64,000 bases of DNA, from NCBI RefSeq assembly GCF_056712565.1, contig NZ_CM160072.1. One strand, 5' to 3'. Within the stretch, counting starts at the first letter, position 1. Every line of letters starts with the position of its first letter. Below, one piece after another: positions 3,802 to 46,967 of the stretch. The notes under the pieces were generated by a model. It saw only the letters and a program-made list of their open reading frames with translations, was not told where the DNA came from and did no database searches. The position numbers and the translations under genes were made by a program.

Positions 3802-4833
3802 TTAGAAAACAAGCTGGACTTTTGCTGCCTGGGTTTTATCACCGGCGAAACGTAGCGCCTCTTCCAGGTCTGTGAAGGGATATTCAGCACTCAGTAAAGG
3901 CAGTGGATTGATAACGCCATTCGCCAGCCATGACACTGCGGTATTAAATTCGCTGGTAAAACGGAAAGAGCCTTTGAGTGAAATCTCCTTACCAATCAAT
4001 GTCATCATTGGGAATTCTGCCATCGCGCCTCCCATACCTACCTGCACCATTACGCCGCGTGCACGAGTGACCTCCAGACAGGTATTCACTGATGAAGGAT
4101 GACCGGACACTTCAAAGCTGACATCGAAATAGCCTTTTTCCGCTTTCCAGTGATCCATGTCGTCGTTTTGTGGGTTTACGAGCACATCCGCCCCCATCTC
4201 TTTGCCCAGCGAAAGGGAACGGGGACTCACATCGGCACAGACAATTTCCGCGGCCCCCAGTGTTTTCACAGCACTGACAATCAGGCAGCCAATGGGCCCA
4301 ACACCAGAAATAAATACTCGCTTGCCCTGTAACTCGCCGGCCTGATGTGCGGCATGAATCGCGACGGCTAAAGGTTCGGCAAAAGCCATAACCTTTTCGT
4401 CAGCTTTGGCCGGATAAGGGACACATTGCGACGTTTCGACCATTTTATAACGGGTAAAGCCACCATCAACATGAGGGAAATACATGGCACTGCCAAAAAA
4501 ACGCATCTCTGTACACTGATTCTCGTTATGTTCAATGCAGTATTTGCAGTGACCGCACGGTTTAGACGGATTAATGGCTACCGTTTGCCCTTCATGTAAT
4601 TTTGATGAGTCGCTATGAATAACTTTACCGATAACTTCATGACCTAACACCATCGGTGCCTTTATCATGAAATTACCTACTTTTCCTTCCTGATAATAAT
4701 GTAAATCGGAACCGCAAATTCCACCTCGGGTTATTTGTACTAATGTTCCATTATTATTCCAATCTATCGTCTGCTCGGTAACGGCAACAGTTTTCTTGCC
4801 CGCAACAACGCAGGACTGTGTTTTCACTTGCAT
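3802..4833 (-). CDS. idnD: L-idonate 5-dehydrogenase (zinc-dependent medium-chain dehydrogenase)
   Basis: 343 aa; zinc-ADH signature GICGSDLHYY and GxGxxG fold; synteny. Confidence 0.85.
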   Translation of the reverse strand: MQVKTQSCVVAGKKTVAVTEQTIDWNNNGTLVQITRGGICGSDLHYYQEGKVGNFMIKAPMVLGHEVIGKVIHSDSSKLHEGQTVAINPSKPCGHCKYCIEHNENQCTEMRFFGSAMYFPHVDGGFTRYKMVETSQCVPYPAKADEKVMAFAEPLAVAIHAAHQAGELQGKRVFISGVGPIGCLIVSAVKTLGAAEIVCADVSPRSLSLGKEMGADVLVNPQNDDMDHWKAEKGYFDVSFEVSGHPSSVNTCLEVTRARGVMVQVGMGGAMAEFPMMTLIGKEISLKGSFRFTSEFNTAVSWLANGVINPLPLLSAEYPFTDLEEALRFAGDKTQAAKVQLVF

Positions 4834-37462: not shown

Positions 37463-37669
37463 ATGGCTACCCCTGTTTCGCTGATGGATGACCAGATGGT
37501 CGACATGGCGTTTATCACTCAACTTACCGGCTTAACCGATAAGTGGTTTTACAAACTCATCAAAGATGGGGGCTTTCCTGCCCCCATCAAAATGGGGCGC
37601 AGCTCCCGCTGGCTGAAAAGTGAAGTGGAAGCCTGGCTGCAGGCGCGTATTGCACAGTCCCGTCCGTAA
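37463..37669 (+). CDS. alpA: AlpA-family phage-type transcriptional regulator
   Basis: 68 aa, MATPVSLMDDQMVDMAFITQLTGLTDKWFYKLIKDGGFPAPIKMGRSSRWLKSEVEAWLQARI; start by frame within ORF 36959..37669. Confidence 0.75.
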   Translation: MATPVSLMDDQMVDMAFITQLTGLTDKWFYKLIKDGGFPAPIKMGRSSRWLKSEVEAWLQARIAQSRP

Positions 37670-37748: not shown

Positions 37749-38366
37749 GTGAGGAATATGAAAATGAAACAACAGTATCAGACCCGCTACGAATGGCTCC
37801 ACGAAAGCTACCAGAAATGGCTGACCGGCTTCACCCGGCACGCCGTATTCTGGGGCGTGTGTCATCCGAATATCTACTACTTCCATAATCTGACGCCCGG
37901 TTGGGTGTCATTCAATGGTGAAAAACCGGAGATTGCCATCGTACCCCAGAGCCTGCACCGGCTGATTTATGGCCCTGACAAACGGGCCACACCGCCCCTG
38001 GATGATGATCTGATAGTGAATTTATGCACCAGTGAACATCTGCTGGTTCATCATCCGATGCTGGAAGGCATTCTCCTGTCTGAATGTGAACGTCTGAGGC
38101 AGCGTTCTCTGGCAAATAAACTGATCAGCCTCTTCCGTCAGTTTGGTGGCACGGAGTTGCGCCTCAAACTGGTCTGGCTTTGCTGGCTTGATTTAATGAC
38201 CGGAAACTGCCTTGACGACTGGACGGAGAATCTGAAACGGAAATCAGAAAAAGAGCTGGAGGAATGGATCATCAACCGTCAGAAGCAGAGCGCAGCACTG
38301 ACGGATCTGATGGATCAGTACGTGCTCCTGTCATACCGCACAACGGTTGACGATAAGCGCACCTGA
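37749..38366 (+). CDS. Hypothetical protein, 205 aa, no recognised domain
   Basis: ORF immediately downstream of alpA; Cys/His-containing, no TM segments. Confidence 0.5.
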   Translation: MRNMKMKQQYQTRYEWLHESYQKWLTGFTRHAVFWGVCHPNIYYFHNLTPGWVSFNGEKPEIAIVPQSLHRLIYGPDKRATPPLDDDLIVNLCTSEHLLVHHPMLEGILLSECERLRQRSLANKLISLFRQFGGTELRLKLVWLCWLDLMTGNCLDDWTENLKRKSEKELEEWIINRQKQSAALTDLMDQYVLLSYRTTVDDKRT

Positions 38367-38588
38367 TGCCAGTTGTTTCAGGGAAGCTGGTATCCGGGCA
38401 GGGTGCCAGGGCTGACTGAACGGCCTGTCTGCCTGCCGTTTCGCTCTCCGTGCGTTCTGTCACACGCTGCACCTGAACGCCGGACTGCGGGCACGCAGAC
38501 AGGAAAGTCGCAGGCTGGAACTTCTGACCGGCGGGTATCAGTTATATGCCTGTTGATTCATCACCACCACGCAGCTCCTGAGCTTTAG

Positions 38589-38628
38589 TTCATCACCGAT
38601 ATTCATACATCTGAATATCGGTGATGAA
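38589..38628. repeat. Perfect 17-bp inverted repeat (TTCATCACCGATATTCA-TACATC-TGAATATCGGTGATGAA) between two convergent genes
   Basis: 17/17 complementary arms with 6-nt loop; no flanking T tract on either strand. Confidence 0.6.
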
Positions 38629-38687
38629 ATCCCCATAATAATCAATCATCTAAGTCTGAAGCATAATGGAGAAAAACTGCTCACCGG

Positions 38688-40172
38688 TTACTTCGCTCTC
38701 AGCTTATTGTAGTGATAACCCGAGGTAAAAATACCAGAGACATCAGACAACTTTAAACTGGCTATCTGGGGAAGCAGAACATACATGGTTTTTCCTTCCG
38801 GCACGACAGAAAGCCTGAACTGAGATTCAAGAATGTTCAGCAATGCGTTCAGTTTTTTCCTGTTTCTGAACCGGCCCGGGCCACACTGGAGAATATAATT
38901 TTTCCTGACACGGGGCGGGCATTCTCCGCGGCACTCCTCAATGAGCCAGTCGAACAGCTCCTCGGCGTCCTTCTGCTGCAGTTCAGATTCATCAGGTAAC
39001 GCAAATAATTTTTTATATTCATCTGTGTACCACGAACTTATTACGACAGCAGACGTCATGATATCGGCAGAGATTTTCCCTTCACCATAGCTGAAATACT
39101 GAAATAACGCTGCAATTCTTGCAATGTTTTCTGTTTTTTTTGAAACATGTCCCCGAAACGGGCTTAAGGGTCCGGAAGGGGATAAATCCTGCTCCAGAAC
39201 ATTATAGTGCTCAATAAATATTTTTTGCGCTTCAGGCGAAAAATGCAGACAATACCGTTCATCCTCACTGGATTTTTCAATACTGCCTCTGGCCAGTTCC
39301 ATTAATCGTTCATGAAATGCCGTTAATGATCCTCCCGGAATCACAGCTCCGTTAATAAAGCGTTTCCCCTGCGTGGTTGCAGGTTTACTGATAAGACAAC
39401 GGGCAAGAAAACCACTGTCCCTGGCAACAGAACCTTTTCGCTCCATATATCGGTCAAAAAGACCGGGTTGCACCATGAGGGATAACGTCATTCTGGCATT
39501 TTCAATCATCTGTTCGGGTTCATTCTTTCTGTCCACAGACAATACAGAGCCATCCCACATTTTGTTAATAAAAGGCAACTCAGACAGGGTATATCCATCA
39601 AATATAATACCGGCTTCATCTGACATAATACCAACTGAACGCCATTTACCACAAAGCTGATTCTTAATTGCCGCAGTCGTGGCATCATTAAAAATGAATT
39701 TATACCTCACAGGTTCTTCCGCACTGTTTTTCTGAAGTACTTCCAGTTGTCTGAGGGTTTCTGACTCATCCGCGCCTTTGCGGAGTTCTTTATTCAGTTT
39801 TGACAACAATGCTTTTTTCTGAGCCTTTAAAAGCTCTTCCTTGTTTTTCCAGACAGCCAGTTCACTTTTGTATCTGGAATATAACTGCATCTCCTGCTGG
39901 TACAGGGGCTTCATTAATAATTTGTCCACTGCGGTTTTTCGTTCTCCGGACTCGGCAAGCGTCAGGAAAAAAAGAGAGACCGGCCCCCGCAGTGTATTCA
40001 GTCTGCAGACATCAATCAGATTCTGGCAGACAAGTGAAACAGCGCCCAGGGCAGACGCTGCCACAAGCCCAAGGGGAGCCTGCGTAATTTGCTGAGCTTC
40101 AATAACGGCATCACGAATGAGTGGAGGCAGCGAACTCAGGGGAAACTCATCACAAGGCTGACCGAATGACAT
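38688..40172 (-). CDS. DUF3987-like (YfjI-like) protein of phage-satellite/integrative-element type
   Basis: ORF 38688..40241; start probably MSFGQPCDEFPLSSLPPLIRDAV…; N-terminal pattern typical of DUF3987 (recollection). Confidence 0.5.
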   Translation of the reverse strand: MSFGQPCDEFPLSSLPPLIRDAVIEAQQITQAPLGLVAASALGAVSLVCQNLIDVCRLNTLRGPVSLFFLTLAESGERKTAVDKLLMKPLYQQEMQLYSRYKSELAVWKNKEELLKAQKKALLSKLNKELRKGADESETLRQLEVLQKNSAEEPVRYKFIFNDATTAAIKNQLCGKWRSVGIMSDEAGIIFDGYTLSELPFINKMWDGSVLSVDRKNEPEQMIENARMTLSLMVQPGLFDRYMERKGSVARDSGFLARCLISKPATTQGKRFINGAVIPGGSLTAFHERLMELARGSIEKSSEDERYCLHFSPEAQKIFIEHYNVLEQDLSPSGPLSPFRGHVSKKTENIARIAALFQYFSYGEGKISADIMTSAVVISSWYTDEYKKLFALPDESELQQKDAEELFDWLIEECRGECPPRVRKNYILQCGPGRFRNRKKLNALLNILESQFRLSVVPEGKTMYVLLPQIASLKLSDVSGIFTSGYHYNKLRAK

Positions 40173-41241
40173 AGTAACCTCACTATACACAGATATAAAA
40201 GCACTGCAATTCTGGCTATTAATAGCAAAAATAGCAGTCAAATCAATATGAGGTAAAATTTTTTGTTGATTTAATGGTTAAATAATAACCACAGTGTATT
40301 TTGCTGCTGAAGAAAGACAAAATGAATCTGTGTGTCCCCTCCTTCCCTTCGGAGCACATCCACTATTCAAATTTTACACAACCACGTACGAACAAAAAGC
40401 ATCATCCCGGGTATTGCAGATACCGGTTTCCTGCCGGGAAGAATCATAAACAGAACACCGGGAATAACGCCTTCAGGAATCACCCCCCCTCCTGAAGAAG
40501 AATAAAATAAAGAAGACTACAGTTCCTGCACTGAATGCTGAGTACAATATTTTATGGACAGGATGACATTTTTATAAATAACAAAAACCATTTAATACTG
40601 ATACATCAATAAAATACTTCTTCCCTGCTGACACAGATAAAATGCACCATTTTTTCTTCAAATACTTCTGTATAATCGCCAGCCAATGATGAGAATGGAT
40701 TAAAATAACACTTCTTCGACAAACACAAAAACAGCCTTCATTTTACATCATCATCCAGTTTCAGTTAACCCCGGACGAGCGACAGTGTTTCAGTACAGGA
40801 ATTAAAAGCCAGCTTTTGCTCAGTAAAACACACTCAACTAATAATATCTCAGCAGATATTATCCTGACCAGGACACCTCACATTACTGAATTCTCTTCCG
40901 ACAGTATCACTGCACAAATAAAAAGAACGGGATAAATATTCAGACCGGAAGAATGGTGTCACAAAAGCATTTAATCATTACGCATGACCAGGAAGGGAAA
41001 CACTTAACCACATGGTATCAACAGATATCATTACGTGTGCACTCTTATAAAAAACACACAGAAGAAGTAAGATAATTATAAACGTAAATTTAATATCTCC
41101 CACTGACATCTCCCCCACAATACACTAAAAAATACTCACAGCAGTAAACACAGATACACCTGATAATCATACAGCCGATAAATATTTTCCCCTTTACGGA
41201 GAAATCAGCCTGCTGTTTAACAATAACGGCGTATTTTCATG

Positions 41242-41282
41242 GAAGGAGATCACCCAGTAACGGATAAGTCCTGATCTCCTTC
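41242..41282. repeat. 11-bp perfect inverted repeat with GATC in each arm, about 120 bp upstream of the GTPase gene
   Basis: GAAGGAGATCA-(19 nt)-TGATCTCCTTC. Confidence 0.4.
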
Positions 41283-41401
41283 ATGTTAATACGCAACAAT
41301 CCCATCGATTCAAAACAATTTCAGACAGATATTATCTCCGTGAATCCCCCGCCACCTTTCCGGTGCGCGGGGTTTTGTCTTTTTTCACCGGGAATACATG
41401 T

Positions 41402-42274
41402 ATGAATCCGTCTGATGCCATTGAGGCAATTGAAAAACCGCTCTCCTCCCTGCCTTACTCACTTTCCCGTCACATCCTGGAACATCTGCGCAAACTCACC
41501 AGTCACGAACCCGTGATTGGCATTATGGGTAAAAGCGGGGCCGGTAAATCCTCACTCTGTAATGCACTGTTTCAGGGGGAGGTCACCCCGGTCAGTGATG
41601 TTCACGCCGGCACCCGGGAAGTACGGCGCTTCCGTCTGAGTGGCCACGGTCACAGCATGGTTATCACTGACCTGCCCGGGGTGGGCGAGAGCCGGGACAG
41701 GGATGCAGAGTATGAAGCCCTGTACCGTGACATTCTGCCCGAACTGGACCTGGTGCTGTGGCTGATTAAAGCCGATGACCGCGCCCTGTCTGTGGATGAG
41801 TATTTCTGGCGACACATCCTGCACCGGGGACATCAGCAGGTGCTGTTTGTGGTGACGCAGGCCGACAAAACGGAGCCCTGCCATGAATGGGATATGGCCG
41901 GCATTCAGCCTTCTCCCGCACAGGCACAGAACATTCGGGAGAAAACGGAGGCGGTATTCCGTCTGTTCCGGCCCGTACATCCGGTTGTTGCCGTATCGGC
42001 CCGCACCGGCTGGGAACTGGATACGCTGGTCAGTGCGCTAATGACAGCACTTCCCGACCATGCCGCCAGTCCCCTGATGACCCGCCTGCAGGACGAGCTG
42101 CGCACGGAATCTGTCCGCGCTCAGGCCCGTGAACAGTTTACCGGTGCGGTGGACCGGATATTTGACACGGCGGAGAGCGTCTGTGTTGCCTCTGTTGCCC
42201 GTACGGTTCTGCGTGCCGTCCGTGACACGGTGGTCTCTGTTGCCCGCGCTGTATGGAACTGGATTTTCTTCTGA
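41402..42274 (+). CDS. YeeP/YkfA/YfjP-type GTPase (CP4 prophage family)
   Basis: ORF 41363..42274, start MNPSDAIEAIE; G1 motif GKSGAGKSS, G3 DLPG; precedes the Ag43 gene as in CP4-44. Confidence 0.8.
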   Translation: MNPSDAIEAIEKPLSSLPYSLSRHILEHLRKLTSHEPVIGIMGKSGAGKSSLCNALFQGEVTPVSDVHAGTREVRRFRLSGHGHSMVITDLPGVGESRDRDAEYEALYRDILPELDLVLWLIKADDRALSVDEYFWRHILHRGHQQVLFVVTQADKTEPCHEWDMAGIQPSPAQAQNIREKTEAVFRLFRPVHPVVAVSARTGWELDTLVSALMTALPDHAASPLMTRLQDELRTESVRAQAREQFTGAVDRIFDTAESVCVASVARTVLRAVRDTVVSVARAVWNWIFF

Positions 42275-42392
42275 ACAGTCCGCCAGGGAAATGCCTGATA
42301 ACATTACGTTAACCAACTGAAAACATGACACAAACCCCTCATACTCCTCCTGTTTCTCTTGCGTGACCGCCTTGTCGTTAATAGAATAAAAC

Positions 42393-42428
42393 GATCGATA
42401 AAACAGGTATCGATCGTTACTATCGATC
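42393..42428 (+). promoter_or_regulatory. Antigen 43 phase-variation switch: three GATC (Dam) sites, expected to overlap the OxyR site
   Basis: GATC at 42393, 42412 and 42425 (spacing 19 and 13 bp) about 220 bp upstream of the flu start codon. Confidence 0.65.
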
Positions 42429-42645
42429 GTTTATAGTGGTTAATGGTCTGCGAAAAGGCAGCTGAATCTCTTCATCATGCAGAACGGAATTGCACACAAC
42501 GGACTGATACTTCTCTGGCGGATGAGAGAGGGGAAGCATTTATGTCCGGGAAAAACCACTTTATCTGAGCATGCTGTTTTGTACCTGCCGGTATCCACAT
42601 TTGTGGGTACCGGCTTTTTTATTCACCCTCTGTAAGGAAAAGCTG

Positions 42646-45600
42646 ATGAAACGACATCTGAACACCAGCTACAGGCTGGTATGGAATCACATTACGGGCA
42701 CCCTGGTGGTGGCCTCCGAACTGGCCCGCTCACGGGGAAAACGCGCTGGTGTGGCGGTTGCGCTGTCTCTTGCTGCTGTCACATCAGTCCCGGCACTGGC
42801 TGCTGACAAGGTTGTACAGGCGGGAGAAACCGTGAACGACGGAACACTGACAAATCATGACAACCAGATTGTCCTCGGTACGGCCAACGGAATGACCATC
42901 AGTACCGGTCTGGAGTATGGGCCGGATAACGAGGCCAATACCGGCGGACAATGGATACAAAATGGCGGTATCGCCAACAACACTACTGTCACCGGTGGTG
43001 GTCTTCAGAGAGTGAATGCCGGAGGAAGCGTTTCAGACACGGTTATCAGTGCCGGAGGCGGACAGAGCCTTCAGGGGCAGGCAGTGAACACCACTCTGAA
43101 CGGCGGTGAGCAGTGGGTACATGAAGGCGGGATTGCAACGGGTACCGTCATTAATGAGAAGGGCTGGCAGGCCATCAAATCCGGCGCAGTGGCAACCGAC
43201 ACGGTTGTGAATACCGGCGCGGAAGGGGGACCGGATGCGGAAAATGGTGATACCGGGCAGACCGTCTACGGAGATGCCGTACGCACCACCATCAATAAAA
43301 ATGGTCGTCAGATTGTGGCTGCTGAAGGAACGGCAAATACCACTGTGGTTTATGCCGGCGGCGACCAGACTGTACATGGTCACGCACTGGATACCACGCT
43401 GAATGGGGGGTACCAGTATGTGCACAACGGCGGTACGGCGTCTGGCACTGTTGTAAACAGTGACGGCTGGCAGATTGTCAAAAACGGGGGTGTGGCCGGG
43501 AATACCACCGTTAATCAGAAGGGCAGACTGCAGGTGGACGCCGGTGGTACAGCCACGAATGTCACCCTGAAGCAGGGCGGCGCACTGGTTACCAGTACGG
43601 CTGCAACCGTTACCGGCATAAACCGCCTGGGAGCATTCTCTGTTGTGGAGGGTAAAGCTGATAATGTCGTACTGGAAAATGGCGGACGCCTGGATGTGCT
43701 GACCGGACACACAGCCACTAATACCCGCGTGGATGATGGCGGAACGCTGGATGTCCGCAACGGTGGCACCGCCACCACCGTATCCATGGGAAATGGCGGT
43801 GTACTGCTGGCCGATTCCGGTGCCGCTGTCAGTGGTACCCGGAGCGACGGAAAGGCATTCAGTATCGGAGGCGGTCAGGCGGATGCCCTGATGCTGGAAA
43901 AAGGCAGTTCATTCACGCTGAACGCCGGTGATACGGCCACGGATACCACGGTAAATGGCGGACTGTTCACCGCCAGGGGCGGCACACTGGCGGGCACCAC
44001 CACGCTGAATAACGGCGCCATACTTACCCTTTCCGGGAAGACGGTGAACAACGATACCCTGACCATCCGTGAAGGCGATGCACTCCTGCAGGGAGGCTCT
44101 CTCACCGGTAACGGCAGCGTGGAAAAATCAGGAAGTGGCACACTCACTGTCAGCAACACCACACTCACCCAGAAAGCCGTCAACCTGAATGAAGGCACGC
44201 TGACGCTGAACGACAGTACCGTCACCACGGATGTCATTGCTCAGCGCGGTACAGCCCTGAAGCTGACCGGCAGCACTGTGCTGAACGGTGCCATTGACCC
44301 CACGAATGTCACTCTCGCCTCTGGTGCCACCTGGAATATTCCCGATAACGCCACGGTGCAGTCGGTGGTGGATGACCTCAGCCATGCTGGACAGATTCAT
44401 TTCACCTCCACCCGCACAGGGAAGTTCGTACCGGCAACCCTGAAAGTGAAAAACCTGAACGGACAGAATGGCACCATCAGCCTGCGTGTACGCCCGGATA
44501 TGGCACAGAACAATGCTGACAGACTGGTCATTGACGGTGGCAGGGCAACTGGAAAAACCATCCTGAACCTGGTGAACGCCGGCAACAGTGCGTCGGGGCT
44601 GGCGACCAGCGGTAAGGGTATTCAGGTGGTGGAAGCCATTAACGGTGCCACCACGGAGGAAGGGGCCTTTATCCAGGGGAATAAGCTGCAGGCCGGTGCC
44701 TTTAACTACTCCCTCAACCGGGACAGTGATGAGAGCTGGTATCTGCGCAGTGAAAATGCTTATCGTGCTGAAGTCCCCCTGTATACATCCATGCTGACAC
44801 AGGCAATGGACTATGACCGGATTCTGGCAGGCTCCCGCAGCCATCAGACCGGTGTAAACGGTGAAAATAACAGCGTCCGTCTCAGCATTCAGGGCGGTCA
44901 TCTCGGTCACGATAACAACGGCGGTATTGCCCGTGGAGCCACGCCGGAAAGCAGCGGCAGTTATGGCTTCGTCCGTCTGGAGGGTGACCTGCTGAGAACA
45001 GAGGTTGCCGGTATGTCTCTGACGACAGGGGTGTATGGTGCCGCAGGCCATTCTTCCGTTGATGTTAAGGATGATGACGGTTCCCGCGCCGGCACGGTCC
45101 GGGATGATGCCGGCAGTCTGGGCGGATACCTGAATCTGGTACACACGTCCTCCGGCCTGTGGGCTGACATTGTGGCACAGGGAACCCGCCACAGCATGAA
45201 AGCATCATCGGACAATAACGACTTCCGCGCCCGGGGCTGGGGCTGGCTGGGCTCACTGGAAACCGGTCTGCCCTTCAGTATCACTGACAATCTGATGCTG
45301 GAGCCACAACTGCAGTACACCTGGCAGGGACTCTCCCTGGATGACGGCCAGGATAACGCCGGTTATGTGAAGTTCGGGCATGGCAGTGCACAACATGTGC
45401 GTGCCGGCTTCCGTCTGGGCAGCCACAACGATATGAACTTTGGTAAAGGCACCTCATCCCGTGACACCCTGCGCGACAGTGCCAAACACAGTGTGCGTGA
45501 ATTGCCGGTGAACTGGTGGGTACAGCCTTCTGTTATCCGCACTTTCAGCTCCCGGGGTGACATGAGCATGGGTACAGCCGCCGCCGGCAGTAACATGACG

Positions 45601-45765
45601 TTCTCACCGTCCCGGAATGGCACGTCACTGGACCTGCAGGCCGGACTGGAAGCCCGTGTCCGGGAAAATATCACCCTGGGCGTTCAGGCCGGTTATGCCC
45701 ACAGCGTCAGCGGCAGCAGCGCTGAAGGTTATAACGGTCAGGCCACGCTGAATGTGACTTTTTGA
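42646..45765 (+). CDS. flu: Antigen 43 self-associating autotransporter adhesin
   Basis: ORF 42571..45765; start [52 protein letters not shown] (extended autotransporter signal peptide); repetitive Gly/Thr/Asn beta-helix passenger; C-terminal beta-barrel ending …GQATLNVTF. Confidence 0.9.
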
Positions 45766-45788
45766 TAATCAGGTCACTCTCCTTCAGG

Positions 45789-45815
45789 CCCCGGTCATCA
45801 TGACCGGGGCTTTTT
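45789..45815 (+). terminator. Rho-independent terminator of flu
   Basis: Hairpin CCCCGGTCA-TCA-TGACCGGGG followed by CTTTTT. Confidence 0.7.
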
Positions 45816-45835
45816 ACTTTCAGGGAGCAACAGAT

Positions 45836-45994
45836 ATGCCGGGTTGTACATCTCGTTTATTGCCCGAAGGCCCTTTCTCACGCGAACAGGCTGTTGCCGT
45901 CAAAACAGCTTACCGCAATGTGTTTACTGAAGATGACCAGGGAACATATTCCCGGCTGGTTATCCGTAATGCTGAAGGTCAGTTGCGCTGGTGA
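45836..45994 (+). CDS. Small hypothetical protein (52 aa) of CP4-type modules
   Basis: In-frame ATG downstream of the flu terminator within ORF 45800..45994. Confidence 0.35.
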
Positions 45995-46148
45995 TGCCGG
46001 AACACAGCTTAATACTCAGCTCGCCAGTTAAGGGCTTCTCAGACAATAAACGTCATTCATTTCATCTGTCAGGCCGCGTCTTCTCCGGGAGACGTGGCTT
46101 TTTCATTTATTACACCAGTAAATCGTAACCACCGATAAGGAGCAAATT

Positions 46149-46967
46149 ATGCGACTAGCCAGTCGTTTTGGTTATGCGAACCAGATACGCCGTGACCGTC
46201 CGCTGACACACGAAGAACTGATGCACTATGTTCCCAGTATTTTCGGTGAAGACCGGCATACTTCCCGCAGTAAACGATATGCGTACATTCCCACCATCAC
46301 CGTACTGGAAAGCCTGCAGCGGGAAGGCTTTCAGCCATTCTTCGCCTGCCAGACCCGTGTGCGCGACCCGGGCCGCCGGGGATACACAAAACACATGCTG
46401 CGTCTGCGGCGGGCCGGAGAGATAAACGGAGAACATGTCCCTGAAATCATTCTGCTCAACTCCCATGACGGTACCTCCAGCTACCAGATGCTGCCGGGTT
46501 ACTTCAGGTTCGTCTGTCAGAACGGATGCGTCTGTGGTCAGTCTCTGGGGGAAGTGCGTGTTCCGCACCGGGGAAATGTGGTGGACAGATTCATTGAAGG
46601 GGCTTACGAGGTGGTGGGCGTGTTTGACCGGATAGAGGAGAAGCATGATGCCATGCAGTCGCTGGTCCTGTCGCCACCGGCACGCCAGGCGCTGGCACAG
46701 GCGGCACTGACTTACCGTTATGGTGACGAACATCAGCCAGTCACCACCGCTGACATTCTGACACCACGACGCAGGGAGGGTTACGGTCAGGACCTGTGGA
46801 GCGCATATCAGACCATCCAGGAGAATATGCTGAAAGGCGGAATTTCCGGCCGCAGTGCAAAAGGAAAACGTATCCACACCCGTGCCATTCACAACATCGA
46901 CACCGATATTAAGCTCAACCGCGCATTGTGGGTAATGGCAGAAACGCTGCTGGAGAGCCTGCGCTGA
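46149..46967 (+). CDS. DUF932-like protein (YfjQ/YafZ family)
   Basis: 272 aa; size and position after the GTPase/Ag43 genes match YfjQ/YafZ-type proteins (recollection). Confidence 0.6.
   Translation: MRLASRFGYANQIRRDRPLTHEELMHYVPSIFGEDRHTSRSKRYAYIPTITVLESLQREGFQPFFACQTRVRDPGRRGYTKHMLRLRRAGEINGEHVPEIILLNSHDGTSSYQMLPGYFRFVCQNGCVCGQSLGEVRVPHRGNVVDRFIEGAYEVVGVFDRIEEKHDAMQSLVLSPPARQALAQAALTYRYGDEHQPVTTADILTPRRREGYGQDLWSAYQTIQENMLKGGISGRSAKGKRIHTRAIHNIDTDIKLNRALWVMAETLLESLR

Follow-up and report, generated by a model that had tools for sequence, protein, structure and literature searches.

We identified an intergenic interval of 1229 nt (40173-41401) in the window, the 64,000-nucleotide stretch of DNA analysed here, which separates two divergently transcribed genes, one of the yfjI family and one for a YeeP/YkfA-type GTPase. 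The YfjI-family (DUF3987) gene lies on the minus strand at 38688-40172, with its start at 40172, and is transcribed away from the spacer; it matches Pfam DUF3987 with E = 1.5e-95 and is named "YfjI family protein" by RefSeq in an identical copy of the locus (L001, 10447-11931). The GTPase gene, of the YeeP/YkfA/YfjP family, lies on the plus strand at 41402-42274, beginning with an ATG at 41402 (Pfam MMR_HSR1, E = 1e-14; RefSeq "GTPase family protein"). RefSeq annotates nothing within the interval in identical copies. Both flanking genes belong to an integrative island like CP4-44 and CP4-57, and the spacer occupies the variable cargo position of that island. At the same position, other E. coli islands have unrelated genes encoding 340-383 aa or the debris of insertion sequences, and the K-12 CP4-57 island has abpAB, yfjM, and rnlAB between yfjI and yfjP. 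Other genera have genes of either orientation there, without A/C skew.

The IsrC small RNA (Rfam IS102, RF00124; 74.6 bits, gathering score 46) is found on the plus strand together with the agn43 regulatory region and its clustered GATC sites at 42391-42627, downstream of the GTPase gene and between that gene and agn43. In K-12, isrC is located between yeeP and flu. The first-pass annotation had pointed to this K-12 RNA in suggesting that 40242-41401 might be a small RNA locus, but IsrC lies outside that region, and an Rfam scan of 40242-41401 at E <= 1 returned no match of any kind. The resemblance to IsrC and the Dam-OxyR phase-variation region of agn43 (flu) is one of setting, with the same island, a small RNA adjoining the GTPase gene, and clustered GATC sites; the difference is that IsrC is downstream of the GTPase gene, and 40242-41401 contains nothing that matches it. 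Annotations of this locus should place the small RNA accordingly.

The interval had been described as gene-free, with a top strand rich in A and C and poor in G, and with an 11-bp inverted repeat bearing GATC, and all three features are present in 40173-41401. Two ORFs of at least 60 aa overlap 40242-41401, one of 64 aa with a TTG start (40301-40495), which had been reported, and the other the GTPase ORF extended to a GTG start. Because the longest stop-free run in the interval, 80 codons, matches that of shuffled sequences (82 +/- 19) and the period-3 signal is 0.34, compared with 6-17 for the flanking genes, the interval is plain non-coding DNA and not DNA depleted of ORFs. Its base composition is A 35.5%, C 23.1%, G 15.2%, and T 26.2%. 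The A+C content of 58.6% is about 3 sd over the mean of 1160-nt windows (50.3 +/- 2.8%), and the A+C extreme of the whole 64 kb falls in windows overlapping the interval. The log2(C/G) of 0.62, compared with 0.00 +/- 0.22, is near the maximum of the 64 kb. Both values bear out the strand asymmetry.

Most of the interval is spacer DNA without detectable function. The body of the spacer (40173-41227) is AT-rich (about 37% GC), A+C-skewed, and non-coding. Of 5426 complete E. coli genomes, 1853-1872 (about 34%) have 80% or more of the region, unannotated in every one; only its last 90-98 nt are present in 4177-4269 genomes. The body was seen in E. coli only and is absent from the other genera sampled. 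Conservation of the region and its hairpin in homologous elements had been proposed as a check on function; neither the body nor the GATC hairpin is kept, and the homologous islands of other E. coli strains, like those of about 11 further genera, have unrelated genes in their place. Alleles of the body are 84-100% identical, that of E. coli Nissle 1917 being the 86% allele, and they differ by substitutions and by deletions and insertions of 2-71 nt that are flanked by microhomology. One block (40488-40787) is 95-98% identical between alleles, a conservation equal to that of the flanking genes, and the motif AGATATYAT occurs four times within 500 bp, so that some function may reside in the body. 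At the left edge, an imperfect palindrome around GCTATTAATAGC (40203-40238; 19-nt arms, 84% complementary; fold z = -2.2/-2.8 for the window at 40173) lies 30-65 bp upstream of the yfjI start, and a near-palindrome is kept in the Nissle-type allele. It may be an operator of the yfjI promoter.

The body could be what extensive decay has left of one or more earlier cargo genes, an explanation that concerns its origin and overlaps with our description of it as spacer. Genes occupy this position in all other variants of the island, and indels at microhomologies, together with the insertion of a miniature insertion sequence (discussed below), are typical of decaying DNA. However, no recognisable pseudogene was found. 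The period-3 signal of coding DNA is missing, tblastn against the cargo genes of the other variants gave only chance matches (E >= 0.36), a six-frame Pfam search of the body gave a single meaningless match (E = 0.013), and a concatenate of the six-frame translation had no match at E <= 0.01 among 5.8 billion protein clusters. Nor does a coding gene, in either orientation, usually leave an A+C skew. We therefore regard an origin in decayed cargo as possible but unlikely.

The composition of the body suggests a second explanation, in which it is a selected insulator or silencer, loaded by Rho at rut-like sequence and bound by H-NS, that blocks plus-strand read-through from promoters on the yfjI side into the GTPase operon while passing minus-strand transcription, whose RNA would be G/U-rich. 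The plus strand does have rut-like character, with weak folding and a C/G ratio of 1.3-5.5 (at least 1.4 in most 80-nt windows), as well as the log2(C/G) of 0.62 over 1 kb, and the GC content of about 37% is typical of H-NS targets. This evidence is all compositional. Other variants of the island manage without the body and carry genes in its place, the hairpin in the GTPase leader would already insulate the operon, and the body shows drift and indels without a pattern of purifying selection. Selection for an insulator is consequently quite unlikely in our estimation.

The body could also be a plus-strand gene for a long non-coding or small RNA, an A/C-rich transcript of about 700 nt running from a TATAAT hexamer to the terminator-like hairpin at 41347-41385. 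A TATAAT-like hexamer had been noted near 40667; a perfect TATAAT exists, but at 40671-40676 on the plus strand. It is identical in three alleles and falls in the block with 95-98% identity between alleles, the leader hairpin is the only strong plus-strand terminator downstream, and selection acting on a transcript could have produced the strand-specific composition. Against this, the hexamer lacks a convincing -35 element and was not called in a promoter scan, which found 5 sites compared with 4.1 +/- 1.7 expected. Sliding 120-nt folds of the body gave z of about -2 to +1 except at the insertion-sequence palindrome and the palindrome near yfjI, one 120-nt window folds at only -2.5 kcal/mol, and the Rfam scan was empty. 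The putative RNA would moreover contain the allelic indels of 2-71 nt, and the region is missing from homologous islands elsewhere. Untranslated RNA that is rich in C and poor in G is expected to be stopped by Rho, and this transcript would be such an RNA. We think an RNA gene very doubtful here. The gap of about 1 kb that roughly one complete E. coli genome in three has at this position shows no sign of a hidden gene or RNA.

A replication origin acted on by the neighbouring YfjI, whose DUF3987 domain we take to be helicase/primase-associated, is highly improbable. The DNA adjoining yfjI is AT-rich and strand-asymmetric, and CAGATA occurs 5 times compared with 0.4 expected, but a regular iteron array is lacking (the direct repeats have two copies each, with 72-92% matches), only four of the six ACAGATA sites recur in the Nissle-type allele, and the yfjI of K-12 stands in a different arrangement without the spacer DNA.

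The inverted repeat to the right of the body has the structure that had been reported for it. Its arms, GAAGGAGATCA (41242-41252) and TGATCTCCTTC (41272-41282), are 100% complementary across a 19-nt loop, with GATC sites at 41248-41251 and 41273-41276, and the repeat continues imperfectly to 41229-41294. Folded as RNA, it has a free energy of -30 kcal/mol (z = -5.9). We identified the source of this structure by comparison with the ends of a complete copy of ISEc12 that has a 5-bp target duplication. The left arm matches the left end of ISEc12 at 30 of 33 positions and the right arm matches the right end at 21 of 23, and the 1-nt bulge that tells the two ISEc12 ends apart is also present in the arms. 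Judged by these end matches, the GATC hairpin is an ISEc12-like left end and right end joined back to back with the interior deleted, a miniature IS21-family element (41228-41295) without a transposase. The unit is 68 bp in total, with 19 nt between the perfect arms and neither istA nor istB. The insertion explains the perfect 11-bp repeat, both GATC sites, and the mini-ORF of 11 codons that had been noted as overlapping the left arm (its ATG is at 41239 and not at 41238). The ends of ISEc12 carry repeated GAGATC/AGATC motifs, which we take to be binding repeats for the IstA transposase.

Similar units of 62-66 nt occur in unrelated contexts, namely plasmids of the pVir68 type (after cdtC), a Yokenella plasmid, and pB17EC0157. 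The element resembles miniature, MITE-like derivatives of insertion sequences formed by internal deletion: its ISEc12-type left and right ends stand back to back, include the GAGATC motif that is repeated in the ISEc12 ends, and enclose no transposase. Where ISEc12 has T as the outermost base of its left TG end, the element has G and its counterpart in the Nissle-type allele has C; a clean target-site duplication is also missing. The flanks are ATAAC and ACAAT, with ACAAT recurring 4 nt further left, and a former duplication may have decayed. An RfaH ops element was not seen in reading the sequence; GGCGTATT at 41228 bears only a resemblance to GGCGGTAG.

A perfect, strongly folding 11-bp repeat with two GATC sites, some 110-170 bp upstream of the GTPase ATG, could be taken for a Dam-methylation-sensitive switch or operator of that gene like those of agn43 and pap, but this explanation is largely refuted: both arms are the ends of an insertion sequence, the element recurs in unrelated plasmid contexts, homologous GTPase genes in other islands and genera do not have it upstream, and the Nissle-type E. 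coli allele retains the promoter and the gene although neither GATC site nor the inner stem survives in it. The "Dam hairpin" is what remains of an insertion sequence and ought not to be annotated as a regulatory switch.

Conservation across bacterial genera is restricted to the last 90 bp or so of the interval (41309-41401). The first-pass annotation had offered a silenced regulatory region as one reading of the whole; a regulatory role holds for this final segment only. The segment begins with a predicted sigma-70 promoter of the GTPase gene (41309-41335, plus strand), consisting of a -35 element TTCAAA (41309-41314), a 15-bp spacer, and a -10 element TATTAT (41330-41335), with the conserved core AATAATTTCAGAYAGATATTATC. 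In most loci the 30-nt core shows 83-97% identity, and in 3 of 18 it shows 63-80%, compared with 59-67% nucleotide identity for the GTPase genes; each locus has a single copy of the motif, 66-82 nt upstream of the ATG. With a conserved sigma-70 promoter only about 70-90 bp from the ATG, the leader would be short, about 60 nt, and the long leader that had also been suggested is not supported. Only 3 viral contigs matched the promoter motif, and we rejected it as a phage feature.

The -10 element and the spacer are conserved across genera, while the -35 element is poor and weakly conserved. A 15-bp spacer with a poor -35 is suboptimal for sigma-70, and the near-invariance of the spacer sequence suggests that it is read by something besides RNA polymerase. 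A dyad, TTCAGACAGATA-T-TATCTCCGTGAA (41320-41344), is centred on the -10 element and resembles an operator, its half-sites matching at 9 of 12 positions. Over 20 leaders, conservation of the dyad parts TTCA/TGAA and AGATA/TATC is 90% or higher. Compared by eye with consensus sequences, the dyad gave no convincing match to a LexA, Fur, IHF, or DnaA box.

A literature search on the gene names and exact motif strings produced one relevant paper, that of Shimada et al. (2014, PMC3946193), in which the K-12 ykfA and yfjP genes have "constitutive promoters" for the RpoD holoenzyme, of the form TTGAAA-15-TATCAT, identified by genomic-SELEX binding. These promoters have the same position relative to the ATG and equivalent hexamers, and they too are followed by a hairpin and U-tract. 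The K-12 copies differ in belonging to diverged sub-families with other stem sequences, and the portions of the paper available to us mention neither the hairpin nor the dyad.

About 5 nt after the predicted transcription start, a hairpin resembling an intrinsic terminator begins (41347-41372, plus strand, -18.5 kcal/mol), followed by the U-tract TTTTGTCTTTTTT (41373-41385); both folding and a terminator scan found it. It has a 10-bp GC-rich stem, after which comes UUUUGUCUUUUUU, the stem-loop and U-tract of an intrinsic terminator. All 20 leaders that were folded have the hairpin, with dG of -10 to -22 kcal/mol, and the 10 bases after it contain 5-9 U in all but one of the 20. At least six different stem sequences keep the hairpin at the same position in about 11 genera, so the stem changes are compensatory. 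The covariation score of 0.209 was not reached in any of 500 shuffles (0.128 +/- 0.02) and is above that of every slid register. Stems were compared by folding each sequence and by covariance-model alignment, which pairs only 66% of cells because bulge positions vary between sequences; RNAalifold on a MAFFT alignment mis-registered the stems. From these features, the hairpin is probably an attenuator. The Pectobacterium leaders keep the hairpin with a weak U-tract, a pattern as compatible with a stem that stabilises the 5' end as with a terminator. In the available supplements of a K-12 3'-end mapping study (PMC7815308), neither the yfjP nor the ykfA leader has a listed 3' end, and this may reflect only low expression.

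We considered and rejected a leader peptide in this region. The candidate, a 40-aa ORF (41283-41405), has PPPP over the 5' arm of the terminator and overlaps the GTPase start as ATGA, but its ATG is inside the right end of the insertion sequence, the sequence upstream of 41309 is not conserved, and its frame relative to the hairpin shifts between genera. The conserved GTGAAT near the transcription start was likewise rejected as a start codon, being replaced elsewhere by CTGAAC, GCGAAT, or CAGAAC.

This arrangement, in which an intrinsic terminator stands between the promoter and the first gene and within tens of nucleotides of the former, resembles units controlled by Q-type antiterminators, which bypass promoter-proximal terminators, as in lambda (PR'-tR') and with Pseudomonas aeruginosa AlpA at PalpB and PA0807 (PMC7969949, PMC9371919). 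The terminator differs in its position at about +5, nearer to the start than +26 or +54. A -10-like sigma-pause element, for which A2 and T6 are diagnostic (PMC9371919), was not found near the start, where GTGAAT and its variants CTGAAC and ATGAAT lack A2. No Q-like protein was identified; the only candidate noticed, the island's own "AlpA", a 68-aa PF05930/HTH_17 protein encoded at 37463-37669, was rejected, as it is much shorter than P. aeruginosa AlpA, in which functional residues extend to at least position 142 (PMC9371919). We take the shared name to be a coincidence and the two proteins not to be of the same family.

We think it likely that the interval is a non-coding spacer built of three layers, an E. 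coli-only body without detectable function, a miniature insertion sequence, and a real control region for the GTPase gene. In the first layer (40173-41227), AT-rich DNA would contribute at most a promoter or operator for yfjI at its left edge. A top-strand transcript of this layer would be rich in C, poor in G, and almost unstructured, and therefore presumably a good substrate for Rho. The second layer (41228-41295) would be the 68-bp IS21-family element. The third (41309-41401) would control the GTPase operon through the promoter with its dyad, the hairpin and U-tract, a weak ribosome-binding site, and the ATG. RNA polymerase would start at about 41342, and most transcripts would end at the hairpin and U-tract as RNAs of about 40 nt. 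Termination there would keep the arm containing the GTPase gene, agn43, and the antirestriction and toxin/antitoxin genes low unless termination, or a factor bound to the dyad, were relieved. The same hairpin would block read-through from cargo upstream.

The control region of about 90 bp may merit further study: it is better conserved than the GTPase gene that it precedes (83-97% in most loci, compared with 59-67%), and it couples a promoter to an immediate terminator-like hairpin in about 11 genera. If the hairpin attenuates, it would set how strongly a widespread island module, Ag43 adhesins and CbtA/CbeA toxin-antitoxin genes included, is expressed. The control region would then also mark the right-hand boundary of the variable position in which K-12 carries the defence genes abpAB and rnlAB.

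A more far-reaching interpretation is that 41309-41401 is an undescribed attenuation/antitermination switch found throughout the Enterobacterales, gating the whole conserved arm of CP4/P4-like islands, with a conserved host or island factor reading the dyad and the A/C-rich spacer acting as a Rho-loading insulator. We consider this combination unlikely. The arm that such a switch would gate comprises the genes for the GTPase, Ag43, an antirestriction protein, a RadC-like protein, and the CbtA/CbeA toxin-antitoxin pair.

The region at 40242-41401 lies inside a CP4-44/CP4-57-like integrative island, between a minus-strand yfjI-family gene (38688-40172; DUF3987, E = 1.5e-95) and a YeeP/YkfA/YfjP-type GTPase gene (41402-42274), 3' of which are an Rfam IS102 (IsrC) match and then the Ag43 autotransporter gene. 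Strain DA33137, which has an identical copy, carries the same annotation, with no annotated feature between the yfjI-family and GTPase genes and with the usual set downstream (DUF905, DUF932, antirestriction, RadC-like, DUF987 and CbeA/CbtA). Given this gap and the limits of the flanking genes, the true intergenic interval is 40173-41401 (1229 nt). The left part of the island also contains a plus-strand gene for a 68-aa AlpA-family protein (PF05930; 37463-37669) and, approximately 250 bp upstream of it, an IS66-family transposase ORF (36155-37198; DDE_Tnp_IS66, E = 1.8e-77). In K-12 CP4-57, alpA, yfjI and yfjJ share an orientation, whereas here the yfjI-family gene is inverted. The IS66 element is seemingly further off in the otherwise identical copy of DA33137, so this part of the island looks rearranged between strains.

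All of the features listed in the first-pass annotation are present in the spacer. The only ORF of at least 60 aa wholly inside the interval is, as had been described, one of 64 aa with a TTG start (40301-40495), and no other ORF of that size overlaps the interval except a GTG-start extension of the GTPase ORF. The longest stop-free run is 80 codons, against 82 +/- 19 in shuffles, and the absence of ORFs is not unusual in itself; the region differs from the flanking genes by its missing period-3 signal (0.34, versus 6-17 in those genes). The top strand is A/C-rich and G-poor (A 35.5%, C 23.1%, G 15.2%, T 26.2%). A and C together make up 58.6%, which exceeds the mean by about 3 sd, with the extreme of the 64 kb held by windows overlapping the region, and the log2(C/G) is 0.62, versus 0.00 +/- 0.22. 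The TATAAT hexamer is at 40671-40676. The inverted repeat has perfect arms at 41242-41252 and 41272-41282, each with one GATC, which extend imperfectly out to 41229-41294 and fold at -30 kcal/mol (z = -5.9). The mini-ORF exists, with its start at 41239 instead of the 41238 assigned to it. Among the interpretations offered (a long leader, a small RNA locus or a silenced regulatory region), only a regulatory role survives, and only for the last 90 bp; the GATC hairpin is an insertion sequence relic and the small RNA is elsewhere.

BLAST searches of 5426 complete E. coli genomes gave matches in 4177-4269. At least 80% of the region is present in 1853-1872 of the 5426 (approximately 34%), always without an annotated feature, and the remaining matched genomes have only the last 90-98 nt, roughly 41304-41401. 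The DNA directly 5' of the GTPase gene in those other islands is unrelated to the window's spacer, being filled by a plus-strand 383-aa or 340-aa hypothetical gene, a frameshifted gene or IS66 debris; comparison of this DNA with the spacer at the protein level revealed no resemblance. In K-12 CP4-57, abpAB, yfjM and rnlAB occur between yfjI and yfjP. We conclude that the cargo at this position varies between islands and that the window carries one gene-free filling of it. Conservation in homologous elements does not extend to the body of the spacer (40173-41227), which was not found in the other E. coli islands or in 31 GTPase loci of other species, including E. albertii with its 98% identical GTPase. 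Those 31 loci have upstream genes in either orientation and no A/C skew. Five short contigs from MAGs labelled Lachnospiraceae or Collinsella (L013, L037, L039, L041 and L042) encode the GTPase at 97-100% identity, and L013 also carries a 181-nt piece of the spacer (99%). All five are, almost certainly, of E. coli origin and were mis-binned.

The conserved promoter-hairpin cassette next to the GTPase gene (41309-41401) is the sole part of the region that we consider worth experiment. For an alignment, the 110 nt that precede the GTPase ATG were taken from the window, K-12 yfjP, E. albertii, Citrobacter, Yersinia, Hafnia and Photorhabdus, together with further leaders from Serratia, Edaphovirga, Salmonella diarizonae, Enterobacter, Lelliottia, Cedecea, Pectobacterium and Xenorhabdus. 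These sequences share a near-invariant core, AATAATTTCAGAYAGATATTATC...GTGAA, present a single time in each locus at 66-82 nt upstream of the ATG, with an identity of 83-97% in most loci and 63-80% in three of 18; the GTPase genes of these loci share 59-67% nucleotide and 42-65% protein identity. The predicted promoter of the window's GTPase gene has the -35 hexamer TTCAAA (41309-41314) and, 15 bp from it, the -10 hexamer TATTAT (41330-41335). This layout recurs in the K-12 ykfA leader, and the ykfA and yfjP promoters of K-12 (TTGAAA-15-TATCAT), homologues that RpoD holoenzyme binds, are listed among its "constitutive promoters" by Shimada et al. (PMC3946193). The -35 hexamer is poorly conserved; the spacer and -10 are nearly invariant and form a dyad, TTCAGACAGATA-T-TATCTCCGTGAA (41320-41344, 9/12 matching), whose halves TTCA/TGAA and AGATA/TATC are at least 90% conserved. 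This conserved dyad suggests that a dimeric protein may read the site as well as RNA polymerase.

Every leader folded has a GC-rich hairpin 11-23 nt after the -10 (dG -10 to -22 kcal/mol), and in all leaders but one U makes up 5-9 of the 10 bases that follow; the window's own hairpin (-18.5 kcal/mol) spans 41347-41372 and is followed by the U-tract (41373-41385). Compensatory changes maintain the stem across at least six unrelated sequences (CCCCGCCACC/GGUGCGCGGGG, CCCCGCAUCC/GGAUNGCGGGG, CCCCCGAAGCC/GGCUCGGGGG, GGCGAAUCC/GGAUUCGCC, GGCAGAACC/GGUUCUGCC and GUGGCGG/CCGCCAC). With a covariance model derived from the main group of leaders, the covariation score is 0.209, versus 0.128 +/- 0.02 in shuffles (0/500 reach 0.209), and is lower in every slid register. 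In this alignment just 66% of cells pair, because bulge positions differ between sequences. With a predicted start near 41342, the stem would begin at about +5 and termination would yield an RNA of approximately 40 nt. The available supplements of a K-12 3'-end mapping study (PMC7815308) contain no 3' end for the yfjP or ykfA leaders.

As the most probable mechanism, we propose that RNA polymerase initiates at the conserved promoter and that a large share of transcripts would end at the promoter-proximal terminator, keeping the long downstream module low. The hairpin would also terminate read-through from any upstream cargo, and a repressor or loading factor may occupy the dyad. In several variants the stop codon of the upstream gene is inside the promoter. 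Alternatively, the hairpin could serve to stabilise the 5' end, combined with a U-rich translational enhancer, which would fit the weak ribosome-binding site and the two Pectobacterium leaders, with four U in one and five in the other. The layout of promoter and hairpin is similar to that of lambda PR'-tR' and the P. aeruginosa AlpA targets. Unlike these, the cassette is without a -10-like pause hexamer carrying an A in position 2. A Q-like partner protein was not identified either, so we file it as a promoter with an attenuator-type terminator, outside the Q/AlpA class. The island's own AlpA was rejected on size as a Q-like antiterminator of the P. aeruginosa type, which is much longer, and the E. 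coli-type protein, although it bears the same name, is taken to be unrelated to it, as judged by the size difference.

The GATC hairpin proves to be a miniature insertion sequence. Searching a plasmid collection with the spacer returned short matches spanning exactly 41229-41298 in unrelated contexts: 3' of cdtC on pVir68-type plasmids, on a Yokenella plasmid and on pB17EC0157. In one E. coli island the left-arm sequence recurs where ISEc12 (IS21 family) interrupts the GTPase gene. Compared with a complete ISEc12 in ypfH, which has a 5-bp target duplication (CCTTG), the window's left arm is identical to the left end at 30/33 positions (GCGTATTTTCATGGAAGGAGATCACCCAGTAAC) and its right arm to the right end at 21/23; even the single-base bulge of the long stem is an inherited difference between the two ends. 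On these matches, 41228-41295 is an ISEc12-like left end and right end with the interior deleted, and pB17EC0157 has the two ends joined in a similarly compact junction. No clean target duplication remains around 41228-41295. The GATC sites belong to a GAGATC/AGATC motif repeated in the ISEc12 ends, taken to be putative transposase-binding sites, and the 11-codon ORF is a by-product of the IS end. Both GATC sites and the inner stem are gone from the Nissle-type allele (GGATATCA ... TGCCCTCC), which nevertheless retains everything downstream; this argues against a Dam-dependent role.

The K-12 small RNA mentioned in the first-pass annotation corresponds to isrC, which lies between yeeP and flu. 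Its Rfam model, IS102, matches the window at 42391-42627 (74.6 bits), downstream of the GTPase gene, and a covariance scan of 38000-46500 at E <= 1 gave no match inside 40242-41401. The match spans the region upstream of agn43 and its cluster of GATC sites (ACGATCGATA...TCGATCGTT...ATCGATCG), which we take to be the Dam/OxyR phase-variation switch, and a strong terminator (42587-42614) is found directly before the annotated agn43 start (mapping to ~42647).

Found in E. coli only, the body is a spacer whose composition is unexplained and for which no function was detected. Rfam, six-frame Pfam and a six-frame concatenate searched against 5.8 billion protein clusters all failed to indicate a function for it, as did RNA folding (z about -2 to +1, one 120-nt window folding at only -2.5 kcal/mol), repeat analysis (only weak two-copy repeats) and promoter scans (5 sites, versus 4.1 +/- 1.7 expected). 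In an alignment of the window, Nissle 1917 and 20KM2300 alleles, its identity to the Nissle allele is 70-81% beside yfjI, 95-98% at 40488-40787 and 85-92% beyond, with flanking genes at approximately 95-97%. Indels between alleles are of 2, 3, 7, 29 and 71 nt, several with flanking microhomology. The 71 nt are extra in the Nissle-type and 20KM2300 alleles, between window positions 40982 and 40983 (~3774-3844 of L009, the Nissle locus). They have a perfect palindrome (CGATCACGGTTTGGCCAAACCGTGATCG), start with TGCGTATT like an IS21-family end and have TACG on either side; possible explanations are a second miniature element and a microhomology deletion in the window.

The predicted plus-strand transcript of the body is C-rich, G-poor and almost unstructured, a composition preferred by Rho, from which we infer that Rho might be relevant here. 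The motif AGATATYAT, which forms the core of the conserved -10 element and dyad, occurs five times in the 64 kb (0.9 expected), four of them within 500 bp (40841 on the minus strand, 40854, 41023 and 41327; 40841-41335 overall). The sites at 40841 and 40854 make a 9-bp palindrome, ATAATATCT-cagc-AGATATTAT. Such a cluster may represent additional operator-like sites, or it may have arisen by chance in AT-rich DNA. CAGATA also occurs five times (0.4 expected); some of these sites are lost from the Nissle allele. An imperfect palindrome with GCTATTAATAGC (40203-40238), 30-65 bp upstream of the yfjI-family start codon, is retained as a near-palindrome in the Nissle-type allele and is a candidate operator of the yfjI promoter.
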